A stretch of 64,000 bases of DNA from a virus, in IMG/VR virus record IMGVR_UViG_3300037483_001012, positions 1 to 64,000 of that record; one strand, 5' to 3'. A model generated the notes under the pieces. That model had not been told where the DNA came from and made no database searches. It saw only the letters and a list, made by a program, of their open reading frames with translations. Below, piece after piece: positions 12,308-37,400 of the stretch. Positions within the stretch are counted from its first letter, which is position 1. Every line of letters starts with the position of its first letter. Made by a program: the position numbers and the translations under genes.

Positions 12308-12793
12308 CTATCCATGGCCAGCGTGCACAAACGGGCACCCGTAATGGCCGCAATCGTCAATGTGCCGGCAACCTTCGCAGAATCGGGTGGTGGTGAGATT
12401 GGCCTCTTCTTGGTCGACGCTCGGCTGGGCGCCATCCGTCGCCTTTGTGGGCTCGCCATGCGGCTGTTCACATATTGAAAACTGCCGGCTGCGATGATTA
12501 AAAGTGCGGCGCGCTTTCGCGGCGCCGCCCCGCACGCCCGGTACATCCGCGGTGCGCGCGGTAAAGGTAAAATTGGGCTCGATGGTTACAGACTGGCCCA
12601 AGGCGAGAGCGACGTCGCGAAATGGCTTATCGTCAAAAAAGACACTGAATACGATGGTCAGTTCGCCGCCTTCCACATAGCCACCCGTGGCGATGAGCGC
12701 CGGCGCGGCCGCCCGCCCAACTACCGCGCCTGGCAGCGCCGCTACAGCGCCGGCGGCGGCCGCTCCGATCAGGAATGTTCGTCGGGATTGCAT
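12308..12793 (-). CDS. Hypothetical protein with twin-arginine (Tat)-like signal
   Basis: SRRTFLIGAAAAGAVAAL N-terminus. Confidence 0.5.
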   Translation of the reverse strand: MQSRRTFLIGAAAAGAVAALPGAVVGRAAAPALIATGGYVEGGELTIVFSVFFDDKPFRDVALALGQSVTIEPNFTFTARTADVPGVRGGAAKARRTFNHRSRQFSICEQPHGEPTKATDGAQPSVDQEEANLTTTRFCEGCRHIDDCGHYGCPFVHAGHG

Positions 12794-14657: not shown

Positions 14658-15323
14658 TCATAGGTCACCGCTCGATATGTGTCGATCAAGCTTATATTTT
14701 TCGACCGCCGAATAGATGTTGCGGCCGCAGCCGTAAGCGTTTCTTCCGATGTCGAGTTCAAAGTGGCCGAGATCGCCGCGGCACCAGTCGCCACCACTGA
14801 CCAGCCCGGCGGCGCGCGCCATCCGGCTGACCGCCGCCTTATCCATCCTGACCGTCACCTTGCCGCGCGCGACTTGATTGATGTCGATCGCTAGGCCCTT
14901 GGGATGCATGTTGCAGCCCGCACAGCTACCGCTCGGCCGCCACCCGCCCATGAACTTGATCGGGTAACCGGAGGCGGTGAGATCGGCGCAGAACCGCTCG
15001 AATGGCGCCTTGGCCCGGGCCGCGACCCTGGCAGTCCGGCCACCGCAGGTCATGGTGACAAGGCCGCGTTTTGCCTGCGAGGCCCGCACAGGCGTTTTCC
15101 TGATCCCGGCACTATGGCGGGCCGCTCGCTGGCCTTTCGCTGCCCGGCGGGCCGCCCGGCGCGCGCTCTTGGTGTTCTTTTCCCGAATGGCTGCCCAATC
15201 CGAGCATCCGAAGCGATCGCAGGTAATCACGACATGGCCCGACGAACGGGCTTTGGCTGCGGCGGCGGGGGTCGAAAGAATGGCGGCGGCCAAAACGGCC
15301 AAGACGATTCGCGAGAATTTCAT
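14658..15323 (-). CDS. M15-family (VanY/D,D-peptidase-like) peptidoglycan peptidase with signal peptide
   Basis: GGWR...MHPKGLAIDIN...DLGHFEL zinc motif; N-terminal signal peptide. Confidence 0.75.
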   Translation of the reverse strand: MKFSRIVLAVLAAAILSTPAAAAKARSSGHVVITCDRFGCSDWAAIREKNTKSARRAARRAAKGQRAARHSAGIRKTPVRASQAKRGLVTMTCGGRTARVAARAKAPFERFCADLTASGYPIKFMGGWRPSGSCAGCNMHPKGLAIDINQVARGKVTVRMDKAAVSRMARAAGLVSGGDWCRGDLGHFELDIGRNAYGCGRNIYSAVEKYKLDRHISSGDL

Positions 15324-15523: not shown

Positions 15524-16009
15524 TTATATCTTTTCTTTTGGTTTGGACCTGACTACGCCAAACGCCGCGGCCACACCAAGAATCAAACCGGCGAGCCCAA
15601 GCACGATGCCCCATAGCCAGTTTGCGCCCTCGTTTCTGCCTTGAATGAGCGTCAACCGGCCATCTATGGCATCAAGTCTTTCCTGCATGATTTTGAACTG
15701 CACGGACGCCTCAGCTCGCGGCAGAAGTGTCTGCTGCTGATCCTTGAGTGTGTTGCGAAATTCGTTGACCGAATCGAAACGTTTTTCGGACGCGGCCTCT
15801 GCCTTGATAACCGCCTCCTTCGCTGCGGCCAGTGCGGCTGACACCGCCTTTTCCTGTCCGTCAAACCGTTGTCCGTTCGCGCGCTCGCGCTCCTGCATGA
15901 TCGCAAACAACTCGCGGACGGTCGGCCCATCCAGCGGCATACCTTGTTGCGCGCGCGCCGGTGACGGCATGACCGCCATCAACAACCAGAATGATAAGAG
16001 CAATCTCAT
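15524..16009 (-). CDS. Coiled-coil membrane-anchored protein, lysis region
   Basis: Signal-like N-terminus and C-terminal TM; KRFDSVNEFR.TL.DQ. Confidence 0.65.
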   Translation of the reverse strand: MRLLLSFWLLMAVMPSPARAQQGMPLDGPTVRELFAIMQERERANGQRFDGQEKAVSAALAAAKEAVIKAEAASEKRFDSVNEFRNTLKDQQQTLLPRAEASVQFKIMQERLDAIDGRLTLIQGRNEGANWLWGIVLGLAGLILGVAAAFGVVRSKPKEKI

Positions 16010-18543: not shown

Positions 18544-18861
18544 TCACGGGGAGACATCATCGCGGTACCACCGTAGGTATTTCCATCCATAGCCCCAGCG
18601 CCAAGACGTCGGCAGCAACGGGTGTCCGCCGACGCGGACCGATATCCACATCGCGATCGCGACCAGCACGTAACCGCGACCGGCAACTTTGATCAGAAGA
18701 TTGGCATCTGCCTTGCGCCGCTGCTTCGCCGAGCCGCCCTGCCAGTACGCCTTATCGTGCTCGGTACAGTCGCCTTCCCATGGCGGCTCGGCACTGACGA
18801 AGGTTCGCCAGAACCAACTCATACCGCCGGAACATCCGTCGGTGGTGAATGGATGGTCCAT
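18544..18861 (-). CDS. Small protein with phospholipase A2-like motif
   Basis: TTDGCS...CTEHDKAY...RRKAD..L (CxxHDxxY). Confidence 0.55.
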   Translation of the reverse strand: MDHPFTTDGCSGGMSWFWRTFVSAEPPWEGDCTEHDKAYWQGGSAKQRRKADANLLIKVAGRGYVLVAIAMWISVRVGGHPLLPTSWRWGYGWKYLRWYRDDVSP

Positions 18862-19136: not shown

Positions 19137-19982
19137 TCACCGCAGGTCGATATAGCGCCCGGCAACCCATCCAGATTTTCTGCCGACGTCGACCAGCATC
19201 CACAAATCGTCACCGTTATGATCGGTGCTGCGGATATTTACGGTCGCTCCCCGCTTGATCGCGCCAATCAGTTTATTGGAGGCGCCGGGACCGGAGCGCA
19301 TATTGAGCGAACCAACATTGACCACGCCCGTATTATCGGCCGCCTTGTCCGCGGCTTTACCTATTCCGGTGGCGCGGCCGAACACCTTGGCGCGAACGTT
19401 CTCGAGCGGGAACAGCGGTGAGGTATTGATCTTGCGGCCGGGACTGATTTCCCAATGCGTGCCGATGAAGGTCACGCCATAGGTCTCGCGGATCGCCGTG
19501 CAGAGCCCGATGACGGTGTCCACCTGGGCGGCCGTATAGTCGAGCCAGTAGCCCTTGCCGTGCGCCGGCGAATGCGCCTCGCGCACGATATGATTGGCGT
19601 CCGCGGTCACCTTCACCTTCAGCCCGTTGACATATTGCTGCTCGCTAACCTTCTCCAGCTTGCCGGGATTGACGATCTCGTGACCGATGGCAAACCCGTT
19701 AACGTTTGGCCTGCCCCTCCAGTTTGATCGGCCGGCGTGCCATGTCCGGACGTTGAGCGGCGCGAGTTGGGTGATGGTGCCGTCGCGGGCGATGACCGTG
19801 TGGGCGCTCGCCTTGGCCGCCGGATTGCAGAGCCATGCGATAGAGCCGTCCGCCTTCAGACCACCGGCGGTATCATGGAGAATAATGCCCTCCGGCTTCA
19901 GGGCACCCGACTTGTTAGGCGTTTCCTTATAGGCACACGGCTTGCCGTCGACAAAAATACGATGATTGCGAATCTCAATCAT
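19137..19982 (-). CDS. Endolysin: N-acetylmuramoyl-L-alanine amidase plus SH3b domain
   Basis: IILHDTAG...ASAH...WHAG...IGHEIVN...GTHWEISPGRKI; C-terminal LNMRSGPG...GWVAGRY. Confidence 0.9.
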   Translation of the reverse strand: MIEIRNHRIFVDGKPCAYKETPNKSGALKPEGIILHDTAGGLKADGSIAWLCNPAAKASAHTVIARDGTITQLAPLNVRTWHAGRSNWRGRPNVNGFAIGHEIVNPGKLEKVSEQQYVNGLKVKVTADANHIVREAHSPAHGKGYWLDYTAAQVDTVIGLCTAIRETYGVTFIGTHWEISPGRKINTSPLFPLENVRAKVFGRATGIGKAADKAADNTGVVNVGSLNMRSGPGASNKLIGAIKRGATVNIRSTDHNGDDLWMLVDVGRKSGWVAGRYIDLR

Positions 19983-20146: not shown

Positions 20147-20280
20147 AGCTTCTCCTCTCGCGTCGAAGGACGCGGCTACAATCGGATTTTGGATTGAGGG
20201 CGTGTTTTAGAGGTTTTCGCTTGTCGGTTGAGCCAATCCTAGATAGAAATACCGGTTACTTCCCCCGGAGGTCGACCAAA

Positions 20281-20850
20281 ATGAAGGTGCTGGTTCTAAG
20301 TCCGTACCCGGACAAAGTCGCCGAAACGATCCGCCGCTGTGGCGACGATGTTTCGATTTTCAATGAAAAAATTGAGAACTTCCCGGCGGAAGTTAATTTT
20401 GTCATTTCATTTGGTTATCGCCACATCCTGAAGGCATCAACGTTGGCCAATCTTGGCAATCGAGTGCTCAACCTTCACACGTCGGCGCTCCCCTGGAATA
20501 AGGGAGCCCATCCAAACTTTTGGTCATGGGTTGACGGCACCCCAAAAGGCGTGACGTTGCATGTCATCGATCAGGGCGTCGATACAGGCCCGATCGTTGC
20601 ACAAGAGATCGTGCCCCTCGATCCGTCTCGCACCTTGGAAGAAACATATTTTGATTTACGGCGCGCTGCCGAGATGCTGTTTGACCGAAGCTGGCCTTTC
20701 GTCAGAACCAGTAGGTTTGAAACATTTGCGCAGGCAAAGACTGGCCACCTGCACAAATCGAAATCAATACCGCGCAACATTGATTACAAAACGCCGGCAT
20801 GCGAGATATCTCGTGACTTCGGCTCGCTTTCCGGCGATGTCTTTGCTTAG
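20281..20850 (+). CDS. Formyltransferase (Fmt-like N-terminal domain); counter-oriented moron
   Basis: ISFGYRHIL...LNLHTSALPWNKGAHP...GVTLHVIDQGVDTGPIVAQ; GGAGG RBS. Confidence 0.88.
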   Translation: MKVLVLSPYPDKVAETIRRCGDDVSIFNEKIENFPAEVNFVISFGYRHILKASTLANLGNRVLNLHTSALPWNKGAHPNFWSWVDGTPKGVTLHVIDQGVDTGPIVAQEIVPLDPSRTLEETYFDLRRAAEMLFDRSWPFVRTSRFETFAQAKTGHLHKSKSIPRNIDYKTPACEISRDFGSLSGDVFA

Positions 20851-20862
20851 GTGCAGGAAGAA

Positions 20863-22599
20863 CTAAAGGTTGTCCTCCCACCCTACCGCTTTGACTGAGC
20901 ACGCTGAGTCACTCCCATAGTAAGCCATCGTCGTTCCTTCAACCGTCATGGTGCTGACAAGAGCAAGAGCGATGCCGGTCGATGTCATTCTTACAAGCTG
21001 GTTCGCATTTGTGACGTTACTCGGCCCAATCTGACAGACATCATTGGCACCAATGAACTGCACGCTAATGCGCGACGCGCTTGGCGGTGTGACGTTTGCA
21101 ATCGACACTGATGTAAATGTCGAGGACGTCGTCCCCGTTGCAATAGCGGGGTAGACCGTGGTGTTTGTGGCCGGGGTTACCGTATATTGCGCGCTGCGCC
21201 CGTACTGTAGCGTCCGCATCCACCGCGCCGTCGCCGCGCCATCGGTTCGGGCGTAGCCGACGCGCATGCAAAACGTGTAGCCAGATGGATTGGTCCCGGC
21301 CGCGAGCAACGCGGCGCAAGACGGATGGAGCGAATACAACCCACCCGAGACGCCAGTAGTCGGGTTGTAGAACACATAAACGGCGTACCAAGTGATCGTG
21401 TTATTGACGATTGTTCCGGTGTCTAGCCCGTTAATGCCAGATGCCGTCATGACCGGCGAGACCGATACGCCGGTCAGCCGCACTGCGGCGCCGGCGGCGT
21501 CCTCAAGCGTCAACGCATTGGCGGTAATGTCCATTGTCGTCGTTGGCGCACCGGTATTGTTTACGATCTTGAGAGCCTTGAACGCCCCAGCGATCGTGCG
21601 GTTCGTGATCAGGTTGAGCGGCCGCCAGACGTTCGTCGTCCCGTCGTAGCGGAACTGCTGCGTCGCTCCCGGCGTCAACGAGATCGGGAAAGGCATGTCG
21701 AAGCGATTAGCCGCCGACGAGCTGGCGTGGTTGGCGCCAATGGTCAGCGTATCGACGGCGTCGATATTCGCGATCGTAATTTGCCGGCCGGCGGCGCCTC
21801 CGGTTAGGCCGGTCAGGATCTGGCTCCCGGTCAGCGTTACCCGGATCGTCTCTACACCGACAAGCCCGGTCGGCGCCCAGTTGTCGGTTTGCGCCGCAAG
21901 CGCCGTTGGCGAGATCGTGCCGGAGTAAGTAACCGCACTGGTGAAATTCGCGCTAAAGTCGATAGCTGTTCCATCGGCTCTCTGGTAGCCGAAAATAGCC
22001 CAGTTTCCGCCGCCGATATGCCTGGCCCAAGCATAATCGCCAGCCTGCGTGGTGATGTCGTTTGCACCAGGCAAGATCAACGAAGTGGCATTATATGTGA
22101 GCGGAGCAATGCCGGAGAAGGAAATAACCTTTAACTCGTTGGGCTGACAATTATTGGAGAAAGAAGAGATCGTTGCCGTTCCCGTGATCATCACTACCGA
22201 CTGAGGAACACTACAGAGATCGACGGTTGCCGCACTGGTTAACGACGCACTGGCTCCGCCGCCAATAATCGGCGTCCAAATGTGGTTTACGGCATCTATA
22301 GCGCCGATGGTAAGCCACGACGCTCCGTCAAAAACCTTACGGCGAGTGGGCGTTGTTGAGCTATCGTCCCAGCACTGGCCAACAGCAGGCAATGAGTCTG
22401 TGGCGTTCGATGGCGCCGAAGCGCCACTATTGCAAGTTACCAATGCCGCCAGAGCTGCGCTGATATTGGTGGAGAATGTCAGGCCACTGATCGTGCCAGT
22501 GGTCGGCATGACCAGCGACCCCTGTGAGGCCTGTGCGCCGCCGCCGCCAAGCAGCGCTATAGCAAAAAGGGCATGGTAAACCGTCCGACGAATGGTCAT
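20863..22599 (-). CDS. Putative tail fibre/spike protein with signal-like leader
   Basis: T/G/S/A-rich; N-terminal domain homologous to that of 23918-27727; ends VGWEDNL. Confidence 0.75.
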   Translation of the reverse strand: MTIRRTVYHALFAIALLGGGGAQASQGSLVMPTTGTISGLTFSTNISAALAALVTCNSGASAPSNATDSLPAVGQCWDDSSTTPTRRKVFDGASWLTIGAIDAVNHIWTPIIGGGASASLTSAATVDLCSVPQSVVMITGTATISSFSNNCQPNELKVISFSGIAPLTYNATSLILPGANDITTQAGDYAWARHIGGGNWAIFGYQRADGTAIDFSANFTSAVTYSGTISPTALAAQTDNWAPTGLVGVETIRVTLTGSQILTGLTGGAAGRQITIANIDAVDTLTIGANHASSSAANRFDMPFPISLTPGATQQFRYDGTTNVWRPLNLITNRTIAGAFKALKIVNNTGAPTTTMDITANALTLEDAAGAAVRLTGVSVSPVMTASGINGLDTGTIVNNTITWYAVYVFYNPTTGVSGGLYSLHPSCAALLAAGTNPSGYTFCMRVGYARTDGAATARWMRTLQYGRSAQYTVTPATNTTVYPAIATGTTSSTFTSVSIANVTPPSASRISVQFIGANDVCQIGPSNVTNANQLVRMTSTGIALALVSTMTVEGTTMAYYGSDSACSVKAVGWEDNL

Positions 22600-22668
22600 C
22601 GGGTGCTCCTATTCTGATTCTCTAAAGAGGGATGCCTTTGCGGCGGGTAAGTTTTTTAGGCTGAGTTT

Positions 22669-23505
22669 TTAGATCGGTTGGAACGATGCGGCCACGCCAC
22701 ACTGATTGGCCGTGGCGTTTGCCGTGGCTGTGACGGCGAGCGGTGACGACCCGGCAGCCGTAGCATTTCCCGCCGCCGACAACGTATAGACCGCGCCAGC
22801 CCGATCGGAACCAAGCTTGGTCGCATTGGCCCATGTTACTGAACCAGTATTTTTGCTGGTGGCGGCTGCGGCAATAACGGCCCCGTTGTTGACGGTGTTT
22901 ACGCTTACGGCCAGCGGAGTCGTACCGCTCGCGGCCCCGGCAGAGGCAGTCGCAAACGCTGTCGGATTTGCGCCCAACAGATTGACGACGCTAATCGCAA
23001 GGCCTCGCCCAGCATTTAGCGAGGTCGATAGATTGACCGCTACTGTTGCCGAGGTTGCGCTGACCCCGGTAAATGACCATATGGCGCAGCCAGTCCAATC
23101 GGCCGGGGAGCCGCCGTCAGACTGGTATTTGGTGACGACCGACGACGCACTTCCAGACCCGAGGGAGATGCTGCTAATTGTCGCGGCCGCTTGGTTCGTC
23201 GTAAACATCGCAGTCACGACGACGACACGGTTTGTACCGTTCGATCCTAAAGAAGTCCCGGCAAAATTTACTGTCGGACCACCGCCGGTATCAGCCGCCG
23301 GGTTGGCTGGATTATCGAACGTGATGGTCGGGTGGAATGGATTTATATCACGTTGCGATAGCTTCCTGGCCGATAGCCACCCCCGTGACGGATTGGTGTC
23401 CGAGTACGATAGCGCCGTTTGATCAATTACATTTTTGGGCAGCGCCATTGCGCCGAACAGTAGAACAATCGCGCAAACAGCAACTTTTAATGCGTTTCCC
23501 ATCAT
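22669..23505 (-). CDS. Beta-rich tail-region protein with signal-like leader
   Basis: S/T/A/G-rich; position among fibre genes. Confidence 0.65.
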   Translation of the reverse strand: MMGNALKVAVCAIVLLFGAMALPKNVIDQTALSYSDTNPSRGWLSARKLSQRDINPFHPTITFDNPANPAADTGGGPTVNFAGTSLGSNGTNRVVVVTAMFTTNQAAATISSISLGSGSASSVVTKYQSDGGSPADWTGCAIWSFTGVSATSATVAVNLSTSLNAGRGLAISVVNLLGANPTAFATASAGAASGTTPLAVSVNTVNNGAVIAAAATSKNTGSVTWANATKLGSDRAGAVYTLSAAGNATAAGSSPLAVTATANATANQCGVAASFQPI

Positions 23506-23507
23506 GT

Positions 23508-23909
23508 TTATTGAACCTCAGATCCAAAGGCGTTGAAGGACAGCGACGTGCTGCTCGCATAGACTCGAATACAGTCCGTGGTTGCAAGCGTGACGCCGAT
23601 GGTGAGGATAATGGAATCGTTAGCTGGGACCGCGGTGTCATACGCGATGTAATGCTTTGGATCCACCGTCGCACAGGCCGGCTGGATAGAGACCCGGAAG
23701 GTTCCGGTCGTGCCAACTTGGTTTGCAATAACGATGGTAGAAACCACGGTCGACGTCGACGCCGGCACCGTATAAAGCGTGCTCAGCGTCGTGGCCGCCG
23801 GGTTGAGCTGGCCAAGGACCTTTAAGGTCTCGGTAGCCGACACTGGAATAGCAAGACACGTACAAACCAGCGCCGCGGCGAATATTCTTAGTGCTTTCTT
23901 GAATCGCAT
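23508..23909 (-). CDS. Small virion-type protein with signal-like leader
   Basis: KVLGQLNPAATTLSTLYTVPAST...FNAFGSE; GAGGA RBS. Confidence 0.7.
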   Translation of the reverse strand: MRFKKALRIFAAALVCTCLAIPVSATETLKVLGQLNPAATTLSTLYTVPASTSTVVSTIVIANQVGTTGTFRVSIQPACATVDPKHYIAYDTAVPANDSIILTIGVTLATTDCIRVYASSTSLSFNAFGSEVQ

Positions 23910-23917
23910 GGTGTTCC

Positions 23918-26900
23918 TCACAATGGGAGCATGAATTGACGGGCGTAGTTGGCCTTGATGGTGCCGCTGGTGGTGATATTGCCGCCGCTCAGTCCATCGG
24001 CCGCGGTGATCTGTGTCACCGTACCGCTGCCGCCACCGCCAGCCCCAGCCGGCATGAACGTCCAGCGCGATACGCCATCGGACCAGAAGATTCCGGCACC
24101 GTACTGCGCAGCGACGGCCACAACCGAAGAACCGCCATTGATCGTGTCCGCTCCCGCGCGCTGCAGCGTAATTGTGTTGGTTCCTGACGCGACGCCGCGG
24201 AAATCAGTCAGATAAAACACCTGGCCAGCGTTCACCGCGTTCGCGGCCGGCAGGGTGTCCGTGCGTGGCGCACTCAGCGCGGTGTGGTAATAGCAACGAT
24301 CGGCGGCAGCGATCGTGCCGTTGGCGTCGCCAGTAGAATTGCAGGAGTCAATGTTAAGGCCGGAAGAACCTCGCCCGGTAGCCGCAGAAAGTGTAGCGCC
24401 GAGTGATACCGAAGTGCTGCCGATCGTCACGCTGGAATTCGTCAGCGATGCGTTCGCGATGGCCGAAAGAGTATTGGTCGCGCCGCTTATAGATTTGTTT
24501 GTCAGCGTGTCGGTCGTGGCGCGACCAACATACGTGTCTGTGCCTTGAAACGTTATTGTGGTCGCATCGGTGCCGGCGAACGTCAGGCTGGCATTGGCGG
24601 TGAGCGTCTTGCCGTTGGCTATCGTCAGCGTCGCCGAGGTGGCCGGGGCTGTGATGGCGACCTTATTGATAGACGTGGCCGCGGCAACGCCGAGCGTCGG
24701 CGTAACCAGAGACGGAGACGTGGCAAATACCGCAAGCCCACTGCCGGTCTCGTCAGAGAGGACACCGGCAAGTTGTGAGGAAGTCGTTGCGGCGAAAACC
24801 GACAGATTATTTGCGACATAGGCAACCGTGCCGCCGCCGCCGAACGCTACGGTGCTCAGATCGGTGCCAGTAAGCGTCAGTGTGTTGCTGACCGTGAAGG
24901 TCTTGCCATCAGCGACGGCCAGCGTCGAGGCGGCCGCCGGAGCCGTAATCGCCATTTTGTTGACGGAAGTAGCGGTAGCCGCTCCGAGCGTCGGCGTTAC
25001 GAACGTCGGTGAAGTGGCTCGCGCCATCGCGCCAGTGCCGGTGTTGGCCGTAACAGCAACACCCGCGATCGAGAGCGAATTACCAGTACCGGCCGTATCG
25101 AACGTCTTGTTTGTGAGGATGTCGGTCGTGGCCTTGCCGACCAGAGTGTCGGTCGACGTTGGCAATGTCAGCGTGCCGGTATTCGATATCGTCGCAATGA
25201 TCGGAGCGGTTAGCGTTTTATTGGTAAAAGTCTCCGCACCGGCGAGCGTCGCCAAGGTGCCCGCGGTAGGCAGTGTGACCGAAGTAATGCCGGTCGCGTT
25301 CAGTGTGGTCGAGAATGCACCAGAGGTGACGAGCGGCCCGGCGGTTGTAAAATTTCCACCAAGATTCATAGACCGAGCCGCATCATTCAGGATGATGGTA
25401 AGGGCTCGGTCCGCGGTCAGAACCTCGGTCGCCGCGAGCTTGATATCGAATGCTGCGCCAGTCGATCTAAGGCCGAATGACGTGATCGCTGTGTGCGTGC
25501 CTCCATCCACAGTCGGTGCGGTGAGCGTCTTATTCGTCAAAGTGTCGGTGGTGGTCCTGCCGACGTAGGTGTCGGTGCCCTGGAAGGTGATGGTCGTCGC
25601 GTCAACACCGGCCAACGTGAGCGAGTTGCTCGCGGTCAGCGTTTTTAAACTCGCGATCGTCAATGTTCCGGTGGAGGAAGTAACCGAAAGACCGTTGATG
25701 GTCTTATTGGTCAATGCTTCAGAACCGGCAAGCGTCGCCAAGGTCCCAGTTATGGGAAGTGTGACGTTCGTCGACCCTGCGGCCGTCAGCGTCAATGGGA
25801 AGGCCCCGGCGGTCGAGAGCGCACCGGCCGTCGTCAGGTCGCCTGCCAGGTTGATCGTTCTGGCCGCATCGTTCACGACAAAGCTCAGCGCGCGGTCAGC
25901 AGTCAAAATTTCGCTGGTGGCCAAGGTGAGATCGAACGCGGCGCCAGTCGATCTGATTCCCAGGCCGGTCAACGCAGTGTGTGTTCCGCCAGCGATTGTC
26001 GGGCCCGTAAGCGTCTTGTTAGTGAGGGTGTCCGTCGTGCCGCGACCGACATAGGTATCGGTACCTTGAAACGTCAATGTGGTTCCGTCGACGCCAGCCA
26101 AGGTCAAACTGTTGCTTGCCGTCAGCGTCTTACCGCTAGCTATGGTCAGCGTCCCGGTCGTCGCCGTGATAGTCAGACCATTGATGCTGGTGGCCGTCGC
26201 AACGCCGAGCGATGGTGTGGTCATCATCGGGCTGGTGAGCGTTTTGTTGGTCAGCGTCTCGGTACCGGCCAAGGTCGCGAGAGTCCCTGTCACCGGCAAG
26301 GTGACATTGGTCGACCCGGTCGTGGTCAATGTCAGCGCATTGGCTCCGCTCGTCGAAAATGCGGCAGCGGTTGTTATGTCGCCACCCATATTGAGCGTGC
26401 GGGCCGCGTCATTGACCGTGACTGTGAGAGTTCGGCCGACTGTCAGGTTCTCGGAATTCGCCAGCGTGAGGTCAAAGGCCCCGGTCCCGCCGGATCTAAT
26501 GCCAAGCGACGTGATGGCCGTGTGGGTTCCGCCGTTAATGGTCGGCGCGGTCAGCGTCTTCGACGTCAGCGTCTGGGTGGCGCCGAGGGTGACCACCGTG
26601 TCGGATGAGCCCGGGAAGGCGAAGCTCGTCCCGTCCGTTCCTGTGAACGTCAGGGTATTGCTGGCGGTCAGCGTCTTGAGATTGGCGATCGTGAGTGTGC
26701 CGGTGCTCGAGGTGATCGTCAGGCCGTTGATAGAGGTGGCCGTGGCCGCGCCCAAGGACGGCGTCGTGAATGCCGGCGAGACGGCGCGCGCCACGGCGCC
26801 GGTGCCGGTGTTCGCTGTAACCGCGAGCCCATCGATCAGCAGGCTATTGCCGGTGGCCGCGGTATCTAATGTCTTGTTCGTAAAGACGTCAGTGGTCGCT

Positions 26901-27727
26901 TTACCGACCAAAGTGTCGGTCGCGGCCGGTAACTCCAAAGTCCCGGACGCAGCGGCCGCGGCCTGCAGCAAAGTGGAGCCAGAGCCAGAGCCAGACATTG
27001 TAACGGAAGCCGCCGTGGCTGCGCCGATATTCGGAGTGACCAACGACGGAGACGTCGACAAGACAAGTGGGCCAGTCCCGGTATCAACCACCGGGGTGCT
27101 CGAGTAGACCTGATAATTTGTACCGTCAGAAACGATCCGGATGCCGCGATTGGGCTTGAGCACAAGCGATGTTTCGCCACCGATCGTGCTGGTCGTTGGC
27201 GTGATCGTCGCCGTTGCCGATCCGGTATAGCGAACATCGACATACCATCCGCTTTGGAAGATGGAGATCGCGCCGGCTTGTGGCAGGGTAGACGCGACCG
27301 CACCCGCGTTGGAATAGATTACCAGCGCGCCTTTGTCGGCATCTTGCAAAGTGTCGGTCGTGCCAGATCGCTCTACCGGGACCTGCAATACGCTCACGGA
27401 AAATGCGTGCGTTGTGGTATCAAGTGTGCCGGTAGGAACCCATTGGGTGCCATCATGCCACTTCAAAACCTTCGGATTTGTAGAAGTGTCCCACCAGCAT
27501 TGATAGACTTGCGCAACGTTTCCTATGCCGTTTTCTGGCGGCGTGTTGCCGCTGTTGCACGTAAACAAAGACTGTAAGCCGGGGTTCAAGTATGTCGTGA
27601 CAAACACACCCATGGTGAGTGGGCCGGTCGCCGGCATAACAATTGAGTTCTGAGCTGCGTGGCTTGGCGAAACGTATGCCAGCACCAAGGCAAGCAACAT
27701 CGGAACGAGACTGCGGAGCAGTTTCAT
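23918..27727 (-). CDS. Long Thr-rich repetitive tail fibre; probable start ATG 27727
   Basis: Recurrent TLATLAG.E.LTNKT, GTDTYVGR.TTDTLTNK and PTLG.ATATSIN repeats; lies downstream of gpJ. Confidence 0.8.
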   Translation of the reverse strand: MKLLRSLVPMLLALVLAYVSPSHAAQNSIVMPATGPLTMGVFVTTYLNPGLQSLFTCNSGNTPPENGIGNVAQVYQCWWDTSTNPKVLKWHDGTQWVPTGTLDTTTHAFSVSVLQVPVERSGTTDTLQDADKGALVIYSNAGAVASTLPQAGAISIFQSGWYVDVRYTGSATATITPTTSTIGGETSLVLKPNRGIRIVSDGTNYQVYSSTPVVDTGTGPLVLSTSPSLVTPNIGAATAASVTMSGSGSGSTLLQAAAAASGTLELPAATDTLVGKATTDVFTNKTLDTAATGNSLLIDGLAVTANTGTGAVARAVSPAFTTPSLGAATATSINGLTITSSTGTLTIANLKTLTASNTLTFTGTDGTSFAFPGSSDTVVTLGATQTLTSKTLTAPTINGGTHTAITSLGIRSGGTGAFDLTLANSENLTVGRTLTVTVNDAARTLNMGGDITTAAAFSTSGANALTLTTTGSTNVTLPVTGTLATLAGTETLTNKTLTSPMMTTPSLGVATATSINGLTITATTGTLTIASGKTLTASNSLTLAGVDGTTLTFQGTDTYVGRGTTDTLTNKTLTGPTIAGGTHTALTGLGIRSTGAAFDLTLATSEILTADRALSFVVNDAARTINLAGDLTTAGALSTAGAFPLTLTAAGSTNVTLPITGTLATLAGSEALTNKTINGLSVTSSTGTLTIASLKTLTASNSLTLAGVDATTITFQGTDTYVGRTTTDTLTNKTLTAPTVDGGTHTAITSFGLRSTGAAFDIKLAATEVLTADRALTIILNDAARSMNLGGNFTTAGPLVTSGAFSTTLNATGITSVTLPTAGTLATLAGAETFTNKTLTAPIIATISNTGTLTLPTSTDTLVGKATTDILTNKTFDTAGTGNSLSIAGVAVTANTGTGAMARATSPTFVTPTLGAATATSVNKMAITAPAAASTLAVADGKTFTVSNTLTLTGTDLSTVAFGGGGTVAYVANNLSVFAATTSSQLAGVLSDETGSGLAVFATSPSLVTPTLGVAAATSINKVAITAPATSATLTIANGKTLTANASLTFAGTDATTITFQGTDTYVGRATTDTLTNKSISGATNTLSAIANASLTNSSVTIGSTSVSLGATLSAATGRGSSGLNIDSCNSTGDANGTIAAADRCYYHTALSAPRTDTLPAANAVNAGQVFYLTDFRGVASGTNTITLQRAGADTINGGSSVVAVAAQYGAGIFWSDGVSRWTFMPAGAGGGGSGTVTQITAADGLSGGNITTSGTIKANYARQFMLPL

Positions 27728-27806
27728 TGGCTTTAGTCCTACGATCATTGAAATAAAAAGGCCGCCGATCAACGGCAGCCAATTCATCGAGGTCAGACGT
27801 TGAGCG

Positions 27807-28064
27807 TTACTTTTTGTCTGGCGCCGGCGCCTTGGCCGCTTCTGCGGCTTCGGCTTTTTTGGCCTCGGCTGCCGCATTCTTGACGCGCTCGGCGAGAACG
27901 GCGCCGGCCGCGGCGGCTTCCAAGCCTCGTGTTCTAACAGCAATATCGATGAAATTCAGCAGCACCTGGGCTTCTTGTTCGGTGAACACGGGGCGAACCT
28001 CGGCAGCGGCGACCGGAGAGGCAAGAGCGACAAGTAACGGTAGCATCGCGAAGCGTTTCATCAT
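27807..28064 (-). CDS. Small protein with signal peptide
   Basis: MMKRFAMLPLLVALASPVAAA-EV; AGGA RBS. Confidence 0.7.
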   Translation of the reverse strand: MMKRFAMLPLLVALASPVAAAEVRPVFTEQEAQVLLNFIDIAVRTRGLEAAAAGAVLAERVKNAAAEAKKAEAAEAAKAPAPDKK

Positions 28065-28090
28065 GAGTTATCCTGGTGGTTGATGAATGA

Positions 28091-28618
28091 TTATTGTGCG
28101 GGCTGCGGAACGGCCGGTCGGCGCGCGAGCGCGATGATGACCTTGTTTTTGATTTCCGTCTTGGCGCCTTTGGCGTCGACGGCGTCAAAAACACGGAAAT
28201 CAACAGCGCCGCCACTCGAGCCCTTGATCGCAGCGGCGATGGCTTGCGTCGCCGGCGTGTCGGGAGAAATACCAATGCCCTTGCCGATATCGAAGAGCGG
28301 GAATTCGATGTAGCTGTCGAAGCCAGCGCTTTCGAAGGCCTCGTCCAGGTCTTCCGCCAAGTCGCGGCAGTAATTCCCAGAGCAATATATTTCGACACGC
28401 ATCGGCGACAGTTCTTTCAGCTTTACGTTGAGTGCGACCAATTCGGCGCCGGTGAGAGATCCCCAACTGCGGGCCTTGGCGACCCGCGGTTGGTAAATTG
28501 TTCGCTCAACGGCAACAGGTTCGACCGGTGCGGTGGTGGTCGCCACATAGCCGGTGCCAGCCGCGACCGCGGCCACAGCCAAGGCGCCCATTGTCTTTGC
28601 GTTCAAAAACTTCGACAT
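28091..28618 (-). CDS. Hypothetical protein with N-terminal signal/anchor
   Basis: GGGAGA RBS; hydrophobic leader. Confidence 0.7.
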   Translation of the reverse strand: MSKFLNAKTMGALAVAAVAAGTGYVATTTAPVEPVAVERTIYQPRVAKARSWGSLTGAELVALNVKLKELSPMRVEIYCSGNYCRDLAEDLDEAFESAGFDSYIEFPLFDIGKGIGISPDTPATQAIAAAIKGSSGGAVDFRVFDAVDAKGAKTEIKNKVIIALARRPAVPQPAQ

Positions 28619-28628
28619 CGATATCTCC

Positions 28629-31600
28629 CTAGTATCCGGCGATGGAAAGATTGACCCCAGCCCGCTCAATGAAGATTCCAGAATTTCTCACGAAGGCGGT
28701 GCAGCCTGCCTTACTAAGATCTTTGATCACAACCTCATCTCCAGACTGTGCATCCACAATTGTCGCCTGTACGTGAGGCAGTGCTTCATCATTTGGTCCG
28801 CCGTTAAATGGCGCGGGATTGATGTCGTTCTTCGGCGTGAACGTAATCGGAAATCCTACCGCCGGCACGGTGATGTTGGTGACTTCATCTCGCCGGTCCG
28901 GCGGATCGATGAACCAGTTCATTGCCAGGCCATAGGCAATGACTTGATCGTTCGTCGTCCGAAGCTCCATGCCCATTTGAAAAAGCTGCCCAGTGTACTC
29001 ACCCGGAGCAAACTTCGTCCATGCGCCCCAATCGGCGGCGGAATAGAAAACGTCCGGCTCACCAAATACATCGCCTGAACCGAACACGTCACCGGCGCCG
29101 GTCTGCGACACCCTGATAATTGGATAGACGTCGACAAACTGCGTCGATAGGCCACCGAGCACATCAGGAGTCGCAAGAAAATCCTGAATCGTTAGTATGT
29201 CCTGACCGGTTGGCACGCCAGTGCCATTCCACGTTACCCCAACGAGGCATGGGGCCGCGCGTCCGATATCTACGATGTGCGGAGAATAGTATGCGCCGTT
29301 TCCTTGGCCGCCGGCATTCAGAACATCCACAACACTGAGAAAATCGTCCTCGGACAGCAGGTCGGCTTGACCGCCAGTCCTGATGTTGGCCGAGTCCCTT
29401 CCTGCCCAGCCTGTAAACGTTCCACTCCAGCCCTCTCCCGATTCATCATGCATAACAATTACATTGCGCGTCAAAAGCGGGTTCGAGATGTCAATATTGC
29501 TCGGGCTATCCGCATATATGCGCGGCCCTGCATCCGGACCAATATATGCTGCAACCCAATACTTGCCCTCACCGAAGACGAGAAACGGCGGGTGAGCGAC
29601 GTCATAAAGCCGCAGAGCGCTTTCGAATGTGGTTCCTTGCCTGATCTCATATTTATGCGGGCGATAATCGCTGATCTCGTCCCAACTGAGCGCCAGGTTA
29701 TTGGAGACAAAGGTCGTGCGAAGATTCGTAATATCGTCCGGCGGCAGCAGAAGCCCGTCGAGTTCCTTGGTCTCCGTCGTCAACCATGGCGACACGCGGC
29801 CTATCGCATCGAATGCACGAACTCGAAAACCCCAAACGCCTATCGTAAGGTCGAGGATGTCGATTGAAACAGACGACGTCGTGCCGGCGTGTTGCCAGTT
29901 CTCTCCCGGCGGCTTTGTCTGAACCTCATAACCGGTAACGCGACCATTGTTGGTCGGCGTCCAAGATACAGTGATCTTGTTGCGGACCAGCCCGCCACCA
30001 ACGAGCGTCAGGTTTTCTTGAACTACGATATTGGTCGGCGCCGCCAATGGACCGGTCGGCAGCGCTGTAAAACTGGCCTGCTCCAGCGTTAGGTTTTGTT
30101 CGATGCGAGCAAACTTGGTCGGATCGTGCAGGACGCCGGTGAACTCGAAGAGTCCACCATCCTCCTCAACGCGCGCAAGCACTCGCACCGCGCGCGGAGA
30201 AATGGATGACGAAGTCAGCGACCAGACCGCGCCGATGATCGGCACCGGATTGAACGGAATGTCAAAATTCAGAATACTCGTAGTAATGGCGCCGGTGGTT
30301 ATCGGCCGTTCGGAGATCGAACCGTCGATAAGGGCAACCTTGAGCGAGTATGTCTTTCCGCTCTCGATCTCAATTGGCCTGTCGACCTCGACACCGATAA
30401 CATCTCCTAAACCATTGGTGACAAGCCCAACGATGCGTCCACCAAACTCAAGACCGGAATATGCCGGATCGTTTACCTCAACAATTTGACCGGGGTAGAC
30501 CTGCGCATGATCCCACGCGGCCTTCCACTTACAGGCCTCGGATTCGCTTTTCTCACTCTCGATCGCCCATCGGCCTGTCCGATGCGCTTGGCCTCGGACG
30601 GTGCAGCCATATGCGACGATCTCCAGGACGCGCCATCCGAAGCGGCGGATATCGTCCGGATCGCCTTCGACAACCTCGATGTTCCTTTGGTAAAGATTAT
30701 CCGGATCGTACCATGTAACATAACATGCGGTGTGGCGCGCTTTCAGGCTGGCGCCGGACCAATCGATGATTCCGCCGATGACGTTTCCCGGAACGACGAG
30801 CTTGGCGGCATCGCCCGGCATATCGGCGATTGCCGTGACGCCGCTGGGCCCCCAAAACACAAGTCCGCGAAAGACGGACGCGATCATGGTGAGAACCTTG
30901 ATCGCCTCTTCCGCGTCAGCAATGACTCCGTTGAACGTGTACCTCGGCTCCTGACCGCCGAATCCGTCCGGCACAAGCTCGTCGCAATACTTTGCGATCG
31001 TATATAGGGTCCATTTGTCTCTCAGCGCGGCGGGGATGAATTCGCCAACGCCCCATCGGGTGTTGTCGACGCAAGCGTAGAAAACCCACGCCGGATTATC
31101 GGTCCATGCAACCTTGAACGTCCCATCCCATATCCCCGTGTATTCTCGCGTCAGGGGATCGTAGTTCGACGGCACTTTGATCTTGAGCCACCGGCCAAGA
31201 TATTTTCTGCTCGGAATGCGGCCGCCGAACGATTCGGCGTCGGCGGTGATCCCGAATAACGCGGTGTCGTTGTATCTGAGCTGATAGTCCTCGATGATCG
31301 TAAATGAATCGAAGAACGTCTGGTTCTGGAGTGTCGACGATGCATTGTCCGGGGTCAGTCGACGAGTGCGAATGTTCCACGGACCGCTTCCGGTAAGACT
31401 GACCCGATAGGCCCGCTGATATTGGCTCGACGTCTTCCCGGAAATGGTATCGTTAATCGCGGTGACAAAATCGCCACCTGATGCCTGGACGTCAATCGCA
31501 ACTTGGACCGACGTCGGATTGATGTCGCCGGTAGACTGATCTGCCTCCAATAGTGCATTCAGTCTAATTTTCACACGCACGGATGTCGCTGTCAGATCAT

Positions 31601-31982
31601 TGACGGCACGAACAACAGCGGATGCGTTCGTTATCTCAACTCCGACCGCCTGCTCGGCCTCGACCGCCACAAACCCGCCGAGCGGTTCTTGATCGGGCGT
31701 GCCGGCCCTGAACTCGACGCTGACATTGGTGAAGTTGAAAGACCCATCTTCGTTCTGAAGAGGCGTATCATCGAGGTAAACGCTCTTTAATCCATCGATA
31801 AGGCCTTCGACCTCGCCCTCACCGACAACATCGATAAGCCTGGCAATCGCGCGCGAGCGAAGCGTATTTGGCGCCTCGACCGGCGTATGTGCGCTGCTTC
31901 CGCCGCTCTTGCCTCCTCCACCCTTGGATCCAGAAATGATCCGATGAAATACTTCGGTTTGAGGCGCATTCAATCGCATCAA
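28629..31982 (-). CDS. Tail tip/host-specificity protein (lambda gpJ-like)
   Basis: GSKGGGGK...PNTLRS, GEGEVEG, WTDNPAW, DGFGGQEPRY; FN3-like repeats. Confidence 0.93.
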   Translation of the reverse strand: MMRLNAPQTEVFHRIISGSKGGGGKSGGSSAHTPVEAPNTLRSRAIARLIDVVGEGEVEGLIDGLKSVYLDDTPLQNEDGSFNFTNVSVEFRAGTPDQEPLGGFVAVEAEQAVGVEITNASAVVRAVNDLTATSVRVKIRLNALLEADQSTGDINPTSVQVAIDVQASGGDFVTAINDTISGKTSSQYQRAYRVSLTGSGPWNIRTRRLTPDNASSTLQNQTFFDSFTIIEDYQLRYNDTALFGITADAESFGGRIPSRKYLGRWLKIKVPSNYDPLTREYTGIWDGTFKVAWTDNPAWVFYACVDNTRWGVGEFIPAALRDKWTLYTIAKYCDELVPDGFGGQEPRYTFNGVIADAEEAIKVLTMIASVFRGLVFWGPSGVTAIADMPGDAAKLVVPGNVIGGIIDWSGASLKARHTACYVTWYDPDNLYQRNIEVVEGDPDDIRRFGWRVLEIVAYGCTVRGQAHRTGRWAIESEKSESEACKWKAAWDHAQVYPGQIVEVNDPAYSGLEFGGRIVGLVTNGLGDVIGVEVDRPIEIESGKTYSLKVALIDGSISERPITTGAITTSILNFDIPFNPVPIIGAVWSLTSSSISPRAVRVLARVEEDGGLFEFTGVLHDPTKFARIEQNLTLEQASFTALPTGPLAAPTNIVVQENLTLVGGGLVRNKITVSWTPTNNGRVTGYEVQTKPPGENWQHAGTTSSVSIDILDLTIGVWGFRVRAFDAIGRVSPWLTTETKELDGLLLPPDDITNLRTTFVSNNLALSWDEISDYRPHKYEIRQGTTFESALRLYDVAHPPFLVFGEGKYWVAAYIGPDAGPRIYADSPSNIDISNPLLTRNVIVMHDESGEGWSGTFTGWAGRDSANIRTGGQADLLSEDDFLSVVDVLNAGGQGNGAYYSPHIVDIGRAAPCLVGVTWNGTGVPTGQDILTIQDFLATPDVLGGLSTQFVDVYPIIRVSQTGAGDVFGSGDVFGEPDVFYSAADWGAWTKFAPGEYTGQLFQMGMELRTTNDQVIAYGLAMNWFIDPPDRRDEVTNITVPAVGFPITFTPKNDINPAPFNGGPNDEALPHVQATIVDAQSGDEVVIKDLSKAGCTAFVRNSGIFIERAGVNLSIAGY

Positions 31983-34122: not shown

Positions 34123-34472
34123 AACCCGAAGTCCTCGGTAAACTCAGCGGTAAGACCGTAATAGAGCGGCGCCACGTCCATCATCGGCGTCCACTTCTTG
34201 CACCGCCACTTCCTCGGGGTGTCTTCATAGGGAAGCGTGTAGAGGAATGGCGTCGCGCCGGCCTTGGTCGTGAAGAATGTCAAGATCGTGCCGAGTTGGG
34301 CCTTGGTGAGCGTGTTGTTCCAACGAAGTGACCATGCCTGACCGATCGAGTTTAATCCGTCAGGTTGCGCTTGGACATATCCATCACCGAATGGCGCTTC
34401 GTTCGTTCGCGCGTTCACGTCCACGCTGCCGCCGATGGATGGCGCTACCGCTGGTGTGAACGTATCGGTCAC
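34119..34472 (-). CDS. Distal/minor tail protein (lambda gpM-like)
   Basis: FGDGYVQAQPDGLN. Confidence 0.9.
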   Translation of the reverse strand: MTDTFTPAVAPSIGGSVDVNARTNEAPFGDGYVQAQPDGLNSIGQAWSLRWNNTLTKAQLGTILTFFTTKAGATPFLYTLPYEDTPRKWRCKKWTPMMDVAPLYYGLTAEFTEDFGL

Positions 34473-37400
34473 TTGTTAAACATCCCGCCAGGTCTTGACT
34501 CGTCATAGAACACCTGCATGGCGATATTCTTCATCGCCTTTGCCGCTTCATTCCCGACCAGTTGCGCCTGCGCGATATCGGTCTTGTTCGCTCCGCTAGG
34601 CAGATTGATCTGGACCGGCGCCATGATCTGGACGGCGCCTCGCCCGACGCGTTCCGAAAGCCCGGAGATGACGTTGCCTGTGCGGTCCGCCATCTTTTCC
34701 GTCAGAACGTGCTCGCCGCGCTCGAGGATGGCTTTGTATTCTTTGCTGGTCAGGCCTGAATGAAGACGCGGCGCGCCGGCGAAACTTGAAACGGTTCGCA
34801 TCGGTGCCGCGTCACCGACGCGTCCACCGCTGTGATACAGACCGCCCGTTGTGGTTAGGCTAAGGCCAAGTCCACCACCACCGCCGCCGCCACCAAACAA
34901 CCCCGACAGTCCTGAAAACAAATCTCCGCCGCCGGCCTGGCCCAAAAACCCCTTGACGATATTGCGCAGTGGATTGGTGAACGCCTCCTGATATGCGATT
35001 TTTGCCAGCGTCTTTGCGAGATTCTGTGCCGCAACCCCGACATTGTCGAAATCGGCGATCGCTTCATCGGCAAAATTACCGATCGCGTCAGACGTGGTGT
35101 CGATCCACTTGTAGTTTTGGAACGACGCGAGGAAGTCGGCATAGGCCAACTTGGCTTGGCCCGCGGTGATCGAGCCGTTTTGAACGGCTAAATTCAGTTG
35201 CTGCTGCTTTTCCGCGACCAGCGGTACGATCTGTTCCCACGTTCCATATTGCTGAACGATATTGCGGTATTCGCCGCCGGCCTTCACCAACAGTTCGATA
35301 TCGCGCAACTCGATCAGCTTCGAACTGACGCCGGAGAAGTTTCCTGACTTGGCGGCGGCGACATAGGCCGCCAGATCATCGGCCGATGCCTTCATTGCCC
35401 GGCCGTGCTCGAGCACGGCGCGATCTATATCGCCGAGAAAGGCGCCTTGCGCAGTCTCTTTCAGGCGAGCGAGACGCTCGGCAAATGCTTCCGCCGCGCG
35501 CCGGCCGCGCTCATGTGCGCGCGCGAGTTTGTCTGCCCGATCCTCTTGAATTGCGAGAGATCTGGCGACGTCATAGCTGATTGGAATATTCTGCTTGAGT
35601 CCCTCGAAGTAAATCTCCTGCGCCCGCGCCTCGATGTCCTTGCCCTGCGCCTTGAGCAGTTTTTGCTGAATCCTATTATGGATGTTGCTGTAAAAGTCAC
35701 CAAACGCGGTCGCGGCCGCGCCGGCGGCGCGCTCTTCCTCGAGTGCAGCCGCGGCGGCAGCGCTTTCGATCTCGTCATAGGCGCTTGCGACCTGGCGAAG
35801 TGTTGCCTGCTCTTTCTCGCGCTGAAGGATGACTTCATAAGTGAGGTTGGTGCCATTCTTTTGCGCCTGGAGGTATTTTACCAATGCGGTGTGCTCTACC
35901 TCCCTGGCCTCCATCCTGGCGCGGATGCCGGAGGCCTCGATATCATAGCTCTGCAAAATGTCGCTATCAGACGTAAATTTCTTTGACGCCGATTCCGTCT
36001 CCTCCTTCGCCAACTCCATCGCAAGACTATTGGCGGCTTTTTCGGCCTCCTCGTAGTTTTTCTTGGCCTTATCGAGCCCGACAATAATCGCGGCGTTGGC
36101 GCGCACCTCTTCGTCGGCGAGCAACGGGTATTGCTTCTTCAAGTCCTGATAGCGCTTCTCGACCTCGTATGCCTGATCGCGCAGACGCAGCAGATCCTGC
36201 ACGTCGATGATTTCGCGCCGTGCCAAAAGCGGGGATTTTGCTTCTTTGAATTTATCGCTTTCGCTTGCATCATATGTGCTGCGGAATCTCTCGCCGCCGT
36301 CGCCACTGAGCTTGCTCAAGCCCTCCCGCTGAGCCGCGGTGAGTTTTCCTGACGCCAATAGATCGAGTTCGGCCCGGTAATCTTTCGCCGCGACGGCGGC
36401 GCCACGCAAGGCGCCGGCATTCTCTCGCGCGGCTTCAGCGAGCGAGTTGATATATGGCTTTGCCGTCTGTATTTTACTAAGCCGCTCATTAAAATCATCG
36501 ACGGTAATCGAACCCTGGGCATATTGCCTGACGAGTTCGATGACCTCGTTCTGCGCGGCAACGATTTGCCGATCTGACCCACTGGTGCCGGCACGTTGAA
36601 TCACGCGCGCATCGGAAATGATCTTTAATACGCGGTCATATTCCTTTTCGATGCTTTCAATATCGCTTTTGGTCTTTTTGACCCTGGCATCGAGCAGGGA
36701 GTCGCCGGCCCCGGCCTGTTCCTTTCCTCCAGCCGCATTGATCTTCTGCAGGCGCTGCTCGATCGTCTTCTGAGCGGACGCAATTTCCTGCGCGGCACGC
36801 GCCGACTTCGCGGCCAGCGCGCCCATTAGAACGATGGCCCCGGTAATCGCCACTCCCCACGGGCCGCCAAGCGTGCCGAGCAGGGCCAGAGATTGTCTAT
36901 TCACAAACGCCTTGGCCCGGCCAAACTGCGTGGCCGCGCTTTCCGCCGCGAGAAGATTGGTGGTCAACGGTTTGATCGCGGCGTTCAGCTTGGATACGTC
37001 CGCGACCTGCCCGGTCAGCGCCGTGCGAGCGTTTCGGGTGCCGCTATCTGTCACGGCCTCTTGCGCCGACCGTGCGTCAAGGCCGGCCAACCCAACATTG
37101 AGACGGGACTGCTGATAGGTAGACCGTAGCGTATTGACCCGCCTGGCCTGCTCCAATCGCTTGTCGACAGCCGCCTTTTCGGCGGTAGCCTGCAGATTGT
37201 CGATATCGACTTGCCGGCGAACAATCACTTCGCGGTCGCGCGCGATACCCTTTTCCGCATTCGCGAGTTCCCGCTCAATCGATATCCGGGCCTTTGTCGC
37301 TTCTCCCGTTGACTGCAGGCGGCCTGTCGTCGTCTGAAGACCAAGCGACGCCGTTTCATGGTTGCGGGCCGCGGCCAAGTCACGAACTAATTTGGCCTGG

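Follow-up and report, generated by a model that had tools for sequence, protein, structure and literature searches.

Six consecutive genes (g1–g6) in the late operon of a lambda-like soil or sediment phage encode proteins that begin with leaders resembling Sec signal peptides, and two of the six, g3 and g6, are tail fibres. The window analysed here is the first 64 kb of the 112.7-kb virus record IMGVR_UViG_3300037483_001012, whose DNA turned up in sediment-metagenome sequencing runs only, with no RNA run listed. The operon occupies the minus strand and runs in lambda-like order: the tape measure gene (34469–38773), small tail-tip genes, the gene for the central tail fibre or tip protein J (28629–31982; 1117 aa; phrog_31 'central tail fiber J', E 9e-255; NCBIfam lambda_TipJ, E 3.5e-137), and then g1–g6, which are separated by intergenic gaps of 2–79 nt. 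The best overall explanation, to which we give a probability of about one half, is that this post-J module of tail-fibre genes has been re-addressed to the Sec pathway.

A first-pass annotation of the window had placed leaders at six start positions on the minus strand, 28618, 28064, 27727, 23909, 23505 and 22599 (g1–g6 in order), and we find all six there. It had also described basic, hydrophobic and small-residue cleavage-like regions in every one of them, a description that holds for g2–g6 and less clearly for g1, whose leader is weak and in which no clear cleavage site is seen. Leader calls were made with a heuristic test of the n-, h- and c-regions together with a family profile. All six proteins pass the test, as against ~5 of the ~136 other greedy non-overlapping open reading frames of the 112.7-kb record (a background of ~4%), so that six passing in a row lies far beyond chance (roughly 0.04^6); none of the head and tail genes between 31979 and 50000 passes, and the N terminus of J is not signal-like by the same measure. 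Net charge ahead of the h-region is +1 to +4 across g1–g6, and the h-region windows span 8–14 residues with mean Kyte–Doolittle values of 2.1–3.0, the core of g1 being merely Ala/Gly-rich. Predicted cuts of A-x-A type follow in g2 (AAA/E), g3 (SHA/AQ), g4 (VSA/TE), g5 (AMA/LP) and g6 (AQA/SQ). Two other classes of export signal were considered and rejected: no cysteine of a lipobox (L-[AS]-[GA]-C) stands at the cleavage position, as a lipoprotein signal cut by signal peptidase II would have it, and the twin-arginine (Tat) motif S-R-R-x-F-L-K is absent, with RR occurring in g6 alone, in poor context (TIRRTVY), and most relatives of the fibre N-terminal domain described below carrying a single R or K.

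The first gene stands somewhat apart. The g1 protein (28091–28618, minus strand; 175 aa) has an Ala/Gly-rich hydrophobic N terminus and, after it, a conserved domain containing two cysteines in CxxxxC spacing (C79, C84); nine homologues keep both the hydrophobic N terminus and the two cysteines, without a consistent A-x-A site, and no Pfam, PHROG or NCBIfam family matches the protein. Its leader is probably a signal anchor rather than a cleaved signal peptide. By comparison, g2 (27807–28064, minus strand; 85 aa) has a classical leader ahead of a small, Ala/Lys-rich helical mature part that contains no cysteine.

Could the leaders be an artefact of start-codon choice, with the true starts lying downstream and the leaders never translated? 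We regard this as highly improbable. Alternative in-frame starts do exist for g1, g3 and g4, yet they lie upstream, not downstream. Shine–Dalgarno-like motifs precede each leader-encoding ATG by 7–13 nt (GGGAG, AGGA, TAGGA, GAGGA, GAGG and AGGAG for g1–g6, respectively), and the leader/domain junction offers no in-frame start. Equivalent leaders are moreover kept open as coding sequence, with their hydrophobic and positively charged character, in over 140 divergent relatives of the fibre N-terminal domain and in 30 relatives of g4.

The two fibres are g3 (23918–27727, minus strand; 1269 aa, repeat-rich; phrog_6002 'virion structural protein', E 3.7e-59) and g6 (20863–22599, minus strand; 578 aa; phrog_17105 at its C terminus, E 7e-18). 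The earlier observation that they share a cysteine-containing domain after the leader is borne out, with 38% identity over ~90 residues and conservation of TCNSG and QCW. This N-domain (27368–27655 in g3, 22255–22527 in g6; both minus strand) is preceded in each fibre by a leader comprising residues 1–24 (27656–27727 and 22528–22599, minus strand). A profile of the mature N-domain retrieves at least 1,339 cluster representatives at E ≤ 1e-3, 493 of them at E ≤ 1e-10, and in most of the best 150 representatives the domain starts at residue 22–30. When 130 family members are aligned on an invariant Gln, a consistent leader emerges: net charge over the first eight residues averages +1.9 (at least +1 in 97%), a hydrophobic block extends from −19 to −8 relative to the Gln, Pro peaks at −6/−5, that is, 4–5 residues upstream of cleavage, and Ala reaches 82% at −2 and 43% at −4, which are positions −1 and −3 relative to the predicted cut. 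The site therefore reads A-x-A, then E, A, S or D, then the invariant Gln, and the profile as a whole has the form of a textbook Sec signal.

As a fold, the N-domain is less readily placed. An AlphaFold2 (AF2) model of g6 residues 25–200 (predicted local distance difference test score, pLDDT, 90.5) is mostly β-structure with one helix. The domain belongs to no Pfam or NCBIfam family, its PHROG match is marginal (E 0.009), and a sequence-profile search of the PDB found nothing; no clear relative of solved structure emerged either, the best Foldseek match being the N terminus of CBA120 TSP4 (E 9e-3, template-modelling score 0.27) and VIA-align giving Z ≤ 6.5 over residues 91–176 only. By tblastn, g6 matches proteins annotated as tail fibres in phages of Bradyrhizobium and Rhizobium and in uncultured phages. 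Two variants of the architecture were seen within the family. One subclass (P0021, P0058, P0118, P0124 and P0150) has a long N-terminal extension in which a linker of ~25 residues, ending in A-x-A, connects a transmembrane-like segment to the domain; the extension may act as a signal anchor or be a signal of unusual length. In a 147-aa metagenomic fragment (P0009), the leader precedes a tandem array of one and a half N-domains.

The hydrophobic N termini might instead have nothing to do with export, being kept on cytoplasmic fibres as a trimerization plug or as a peptide for membrane insertion during infection. In every tailed phage studied so far virions are assembled in the cytoplasm, AF2 models the leader of g4 as a confident helix, and g1 and the long-leader subclass lack clean cleavage geometry, all of which speak for such a retained segment. 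Against it, leader sequences diverge freely among N-domain proteins and keep only n-, h- and c-region physicochemistry and the A-x-A site, a pattern that fits a cleaved targeting signal and neither a structural segment nor an untranslated region. Leaderless homologues, furthermore, begin exactly at the predicted +1/+2 position; the cysteine pairs considered below fit an oxidizing compartment; and a positively charged n-region with a hydrophobic core would engage the signal recognition particle or Sec in any case. We therefore judge a retained structural N terminus to be improbable, and it shares with the start-codon artefact a poor fit to the data. Judged by comparison across relatives, the leaders are genuine, conserved Sec-type features placed exactly at domain boundaries and accompanied by cysteine pairs of disulfide type, and it is likely that the proteins are truly exported and processed.

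Between the two fibres lie two further leader-bearing genes. The product of g4 (23508–23909, minus strand; 133 aa) is a small eight-stranded jelly roll with a single Cys pair (79/113). Its AF2 model (pLDDT 94) matches viral jelly rolls in Foldseek from E 3.6e-4, and phage cement and turret proteins at E ~2–3e-3; a profile search gave no sequence match in the PDB. The protein is 56% identical to a leaderless, Cys-free protein of 108 aa encoded after a fibre gene in phage ct2KA10, and it resembles gp021 of Pontimonas phage phiPsal1, a 'putative virion structural protein' that is likewise leaderless and Cys-free. Classical leaders are found in 30 of its 120 closest relatives. The g5 protein (22669–23505, minus strand; 278 aa) combines its leader with a β-rich domain and one Cys pair (140/269). 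A single homologue was found by sequence, P0279, which retains both cysteines behind a different leader, also classical. In the ESM Atlas the closest clusters are viral proteins of 218 aa whose alignment to g5 starts at residue 27 or 41; the 277-aa protein encoded after the g4 homologue in ct2KA10 is not similar to g5.

We compared the distribution of cysteines with that of leaders. Of the 152 N-domain sequences compared, 142 are leader-bearing, and the domain contains two or more cysteines in 133. All nine truly leaderless homologues lack a Cys pair, having no cysteine or, in a single case, one; for eight of these nine, the nearest leader-bearing relative (40–67% identity) has exactly two. 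The leader-bearing subgroups place the pair in three different ways. A similar restriction appears in the unrelated g4 family (the 120 closest relatives), where a Cys pair is present in 8 of 30 leader-bearing proteins and in 0 of 90 leaderless ones. Within the module, the mature proteins g1–g6 contain 2, 0, 4, 2, 2 and 8 cysteines, numbers that are all even and resolve into local pairs (57/77 and 1129/1145 in g3; four pairs in g6, among them 56/76); among 17 other late proteins, 8 of the 14 that contain cysteine have an odd count. The first-pass suggestion that the fibres are exported and form disulfides in the periplasm thus finds comparative support on three sides: a Sec profile across 130 members, a leader kept in prophages and in a particle-releasing phage (below), and a Cys pair confined to leader-bearing members in two unrelated families. 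Such a comparison makes export with periplasmic disulfide formation a well-supported and probable conclusion, and suggests that the fibres probably fold outside the cytoplasm in which particles are built.

We next considered where the N-domain occurs in other phages. In Rhizobium phage RHph_TM16, a homologue (EVB27_007, 'tail collar domain-containing protein') occupies the same slot, directly after a 'tail host specificity protein J' that is itself homologous to the J of this phage (31% identity over J residues 135–782). The N-domain of EVB27_007 is homologous to g6 residues 36–180 (32% identity, E 8e-15) and its C-terminal receptor-binding part is variable; it differs from g6 in being leaderless and in having both N-domain cysteines replaced, and the gene that follows it encodes a 'putative tail fiber assembly protein', where the phage studied here has further leader-bearing genes instead. 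This position lends support to the earlier proposal that the shared domain is a common anchor. Because the domain is conserved, is joined to variable C-terminal partners and is encoded directly after J, it is most simply taken as a docking module for the J-type tip, with J the presumed partner; the N-domain thus belongs to the side-fibre slot. The g3 and g6 genes resemble those of lambda-type side fibres in lying downstream of J and in their homology to phage fibres (phrog_6002 and phrog_17105, respectively). Side fibres of that type have no export signal, whereas g3, g6 and 142 of the 152 family members bear a canonical leader. The closest relatives of the module are leaderless side fibres of the ordinary kind, encoded distal to J as in RHph_TM16, and the module appears to depart from them in one defining feature of the class, cytoplasmic production.

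Leader-bearing N-domain fibres are also found in integrated phages. In a genome survey covering the family and the order of a Bradyrhizobium genome taken as the centre, N-domain matches occurred in 7 of 251 genomes of the family, usually as two tandem copies, and in 1 of 301 in the order. All five Nitrobacteraceae prophage loci that were cut out have one or two leader-bearing N-domain fibres per locus, immediately after a J-type gene. One prophage locus (L080, 14519–17381; genome G305) encodes, immediately after a leader-bearing N-domain fibre, a second fibre that has no leader and whose N terminus, by eye, is Mtd_N-like (it starts MTTTQVQARRGTAAQ), so that one phage may combine an exported with a cytoplasmic fibre. 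Scans with single proteins found no relatives of g6 or the leaderless P0127 in viral contigs, or of the leaderless P0125 in genome contigs, and related-loci searches with alignments gave no more than one weak locus.

One phage known to form particles encodes the leader-bearing fibres. Bradyrhizobium diazoefficiens USDA 122 spontaneously releases its prophage ppBdUSDA122-1 as siphovirus particles (PMC10127595), and in the genome of that phage (OP596612) two tandem fibres directly after a tail protein, WAX24264.1 and WAX24263.1, each have a classical leader and an N-domain with two cysteines. The paper contains no occurrence of 'signal peptide' or 'tail fiber', and the leaders are unremarked in it (PMC10127595). 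The module of ppBdUSDA122-1 differs from the present one in that its tail-tip protein is of another subtype (with DUF1833 and C40 peptidase neighbours) and in that equivalents of g1, g2, g4 and g5 are missing.

Export does not by itself place a protein on the virion. The main rival to a Sec-routed fibre module, which we consider unlikely but serious, holds that the six proteins are exported without being virion parts and are active within or at the envelope of the cell that makes them, masking or modifying receptors (and so excluding superinfection or keeping progeny from adsorbing to debris) or serving as adhesins after release, in the manner of mosaic adhesive trimer (MAT) fibres. The evidence for export—the Sec profile and the patterns of leaders and Cys pairs—applies equally to such a role; J-type siphophages can infect without side fibres, as is established for lambda PaPa; and a sugar-formyltransferase-like gene adjoins the module. 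A cellular precedent exists as well: as described by Caulton et al. 2024 (PMC10769870), the MAT fibres of Bdellovibrio bacteriovorus combine a signal peptide, a conserved β-rich N-domain, a phage-like trimeric fibre and variable tips, some with disulfides, and show that fibres so built can serve a cell. Fibres of the g3/g6 type share this architecture, a likeness of layout which makes the MAT fibre the closest functional analogue; by that account, MAT fibres are encoded by cellular genes of the predator and displayed on its own surface, and differ in this from genes in a phage late operon after J.

Several features nonetheless favour the virion. In every context examined the genes are found immediately downstream of J, in the slot for side fibres, and the leaderless homologue that fills this slot in RHph_TM16 is a tail-collar fibre followed by a putative fibre assembly protein. 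A conserved N-domain joined to highly variable C termini is characteristic of a module that docks on a partner which is itself conserved. Features of surface display, such as an outer-membrane barrel or a lipobox, are absent from the proteins; the minus strand shows no sigma-70-like promoter between 17000 and 29000, in what is a weak test in alphaproteobacteria; and a fibre of 1269 residues would be a costly decoy. On balance, and given export, we think it somewhat more probable that the proteins end up on virions than that they do not.

A working model of the Sec-routed module would run as follows. Genes g1–g6 would be transcribed with the late operon; g2–g6 would pass through SecYEG and be cut by signal peptidase I at A-x-A, which in g3 and g6 would sever the leader immediately before the conserved N-domain, while g1 would probably remain anchored in the membrane. 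In the oxidizing periplasm, DsbA-type oxidation would turn the local Cys pairs into disulfides, and the fibres would fold and trimerize there. Phage exit by holin-dependent lysis is to be expected, because the endolysin (19137–19982, minus strand; AmpD-type amidase in NCBIfam, E 2.5e-20, plus SH3 matches) is a leaderless protein of amidase_2 and SH3 domains. In a last and speculative step, holin and endolysin would open the envelope, and cytoplasmic particles would meet concentrated periplasmic fibres, which would dock on J through their N-domains. Late attachment of this kind is biochemically plausible because fibreless particles of T4 and P22 are well known to accept fibres or tailspikes added in vitro. 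Extended to other phages, the model would mean that some tailed phages have an extracytoplasmic last step of assembly, in which a host-recognition module of side fibres, jelly-roll accessories and an anchor protein is exported via Sec, oxidized and folded in the periplasm, and added at lysis; we advance this generalization tentatively, at somewhat less than even odds. Within the six-gene run, a terminator-like GC-rich hairpin with a T-run lies between g2 and g3 (27760–27780, minus strand; eight pairs, seven of them GC, with the tail TTTTTATTTC), and, without read-through by late antitermination, it might dampen expression of the fibres.

A number of points weigh against this account. Attachment after lysis must be fast, and we know of no tailed phage for which such a route has been shown. 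No clear cleavage site is present in g1. Of the leader-bearing relatives of g4, 22 of 30 have no Cys pair, and cysteine density is not raised in the module (0.76% in g1–g6 against 0.78% in the other late proteins). A tree-based test of leader against Cys pair yields only two independent contrasts on supported branches, and the sign test is powerless; we regard the link as a strong raw association, neither proven nor phylogenetically independent. The leader-bearing form of the N-domain occurs in only 1 of 50,697 phage records, namely ppBdUSDA122-1, which means that functional use on virions is poorly sampled, and for that phage as for the present one the case for export is one of sequence comparison. 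The report on ppBdUSDA122-1 describes no plaque assay (PMC10127595).

Phage-encoded proteins with export signals are familiar in another form. Lom and Bor of lambda, Cor of phi80 and N15, and Llp of T5 are all encoded near host-recognition genes. They are, however, small proteins of the outer membrane or lipoproteins, with no relation to fibres, whereas in the present module the signals sit on the fibres themselves and on jelly-roll accessories, without a lipobox. A more suggestive parallel is found in Cellulophaga phage phi46:3 (KC821622; L086, 30343–38945), in which five consecutive late genes, gp079–gp083, have classical leaders and four of the five bear the annotation 'structural protein', assigned from their similarity to phi18:3 gp85–87. 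This phage is a cultured podovirus (Pachyviridae) of a Bacteroidota host, and its sequences are unrelated to ours; by analogy, its run of genes hints that leader-bearing proteins can reach virions.

Textbook morphogenesis of tailed phages is entirely cytoplasmic. A full-text literature search found no description of tail fibres with Sec leaders in tailed phages, and the phage literature that it did find mentions signal peptides only in methods, in references or in the unrelated sense of extracellular contractile injection system (eCIS) cargo. If our reading is correct, a conserved, Sec-routed class of tail fibres, with at least 1,339 N-domain clusters and about a quarter of the closest g4-type accessories, would represent a new route of assembly. 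The presence of disulfide bonds in some virion parts would thereby be explained, and fibres could be stabilized by them; the supply of fibres would be governed by the Sec and Dsb systems of the host, making host Sec, signal peptidase and Dsb factors in phage host range and fitness. For annotation pipelines, a signal peptide should not exclude a gene as encoding a virion or receptor-binding protein, and for recombinant production of such fibres periplasmic expression is advised. B. diazoefficiens USDA 122 with ppBdUSDA122-1 offers a cultivable test system.

Beyond g6 the operon gives way to a convergent plus-strand formyltransferase-like gene, and then to the endolysin and small membrane proteins. 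The formyltransferase-domain gene (20278–20850, plus strand) lies between the fibre module and the endolysin; the best NCBIfam matches of its product are to sugar or ArnA-type formyltransferases and dTDP-4-amino-4,6-dideoxyglucose formyltransferases, all below cut-off, and the gene may represent a moron for surface-glycan modification. In the lysis region, the open reading frame at 18544–18861 (minus strand) encodes a DGCSG...C..HD..Y pattern resembling prokaryotic phospholipase-A2-like motifs, with no Pfam match at E ≤ 0.01. Three further exported-looking proteins are encoded 3' of the lysis genes on the minus strand (12308–12793, 14658–15323 and 15524–16009): one carries an SRRTFL motif of twin-arginine type (Pfam TAT_signal, E 2.4e-4, narrowly short of the cut-off), one combines a classical leader with a Peptidase_M15_4 match (E 8e-5), and one has a classical leader and no assigned family.

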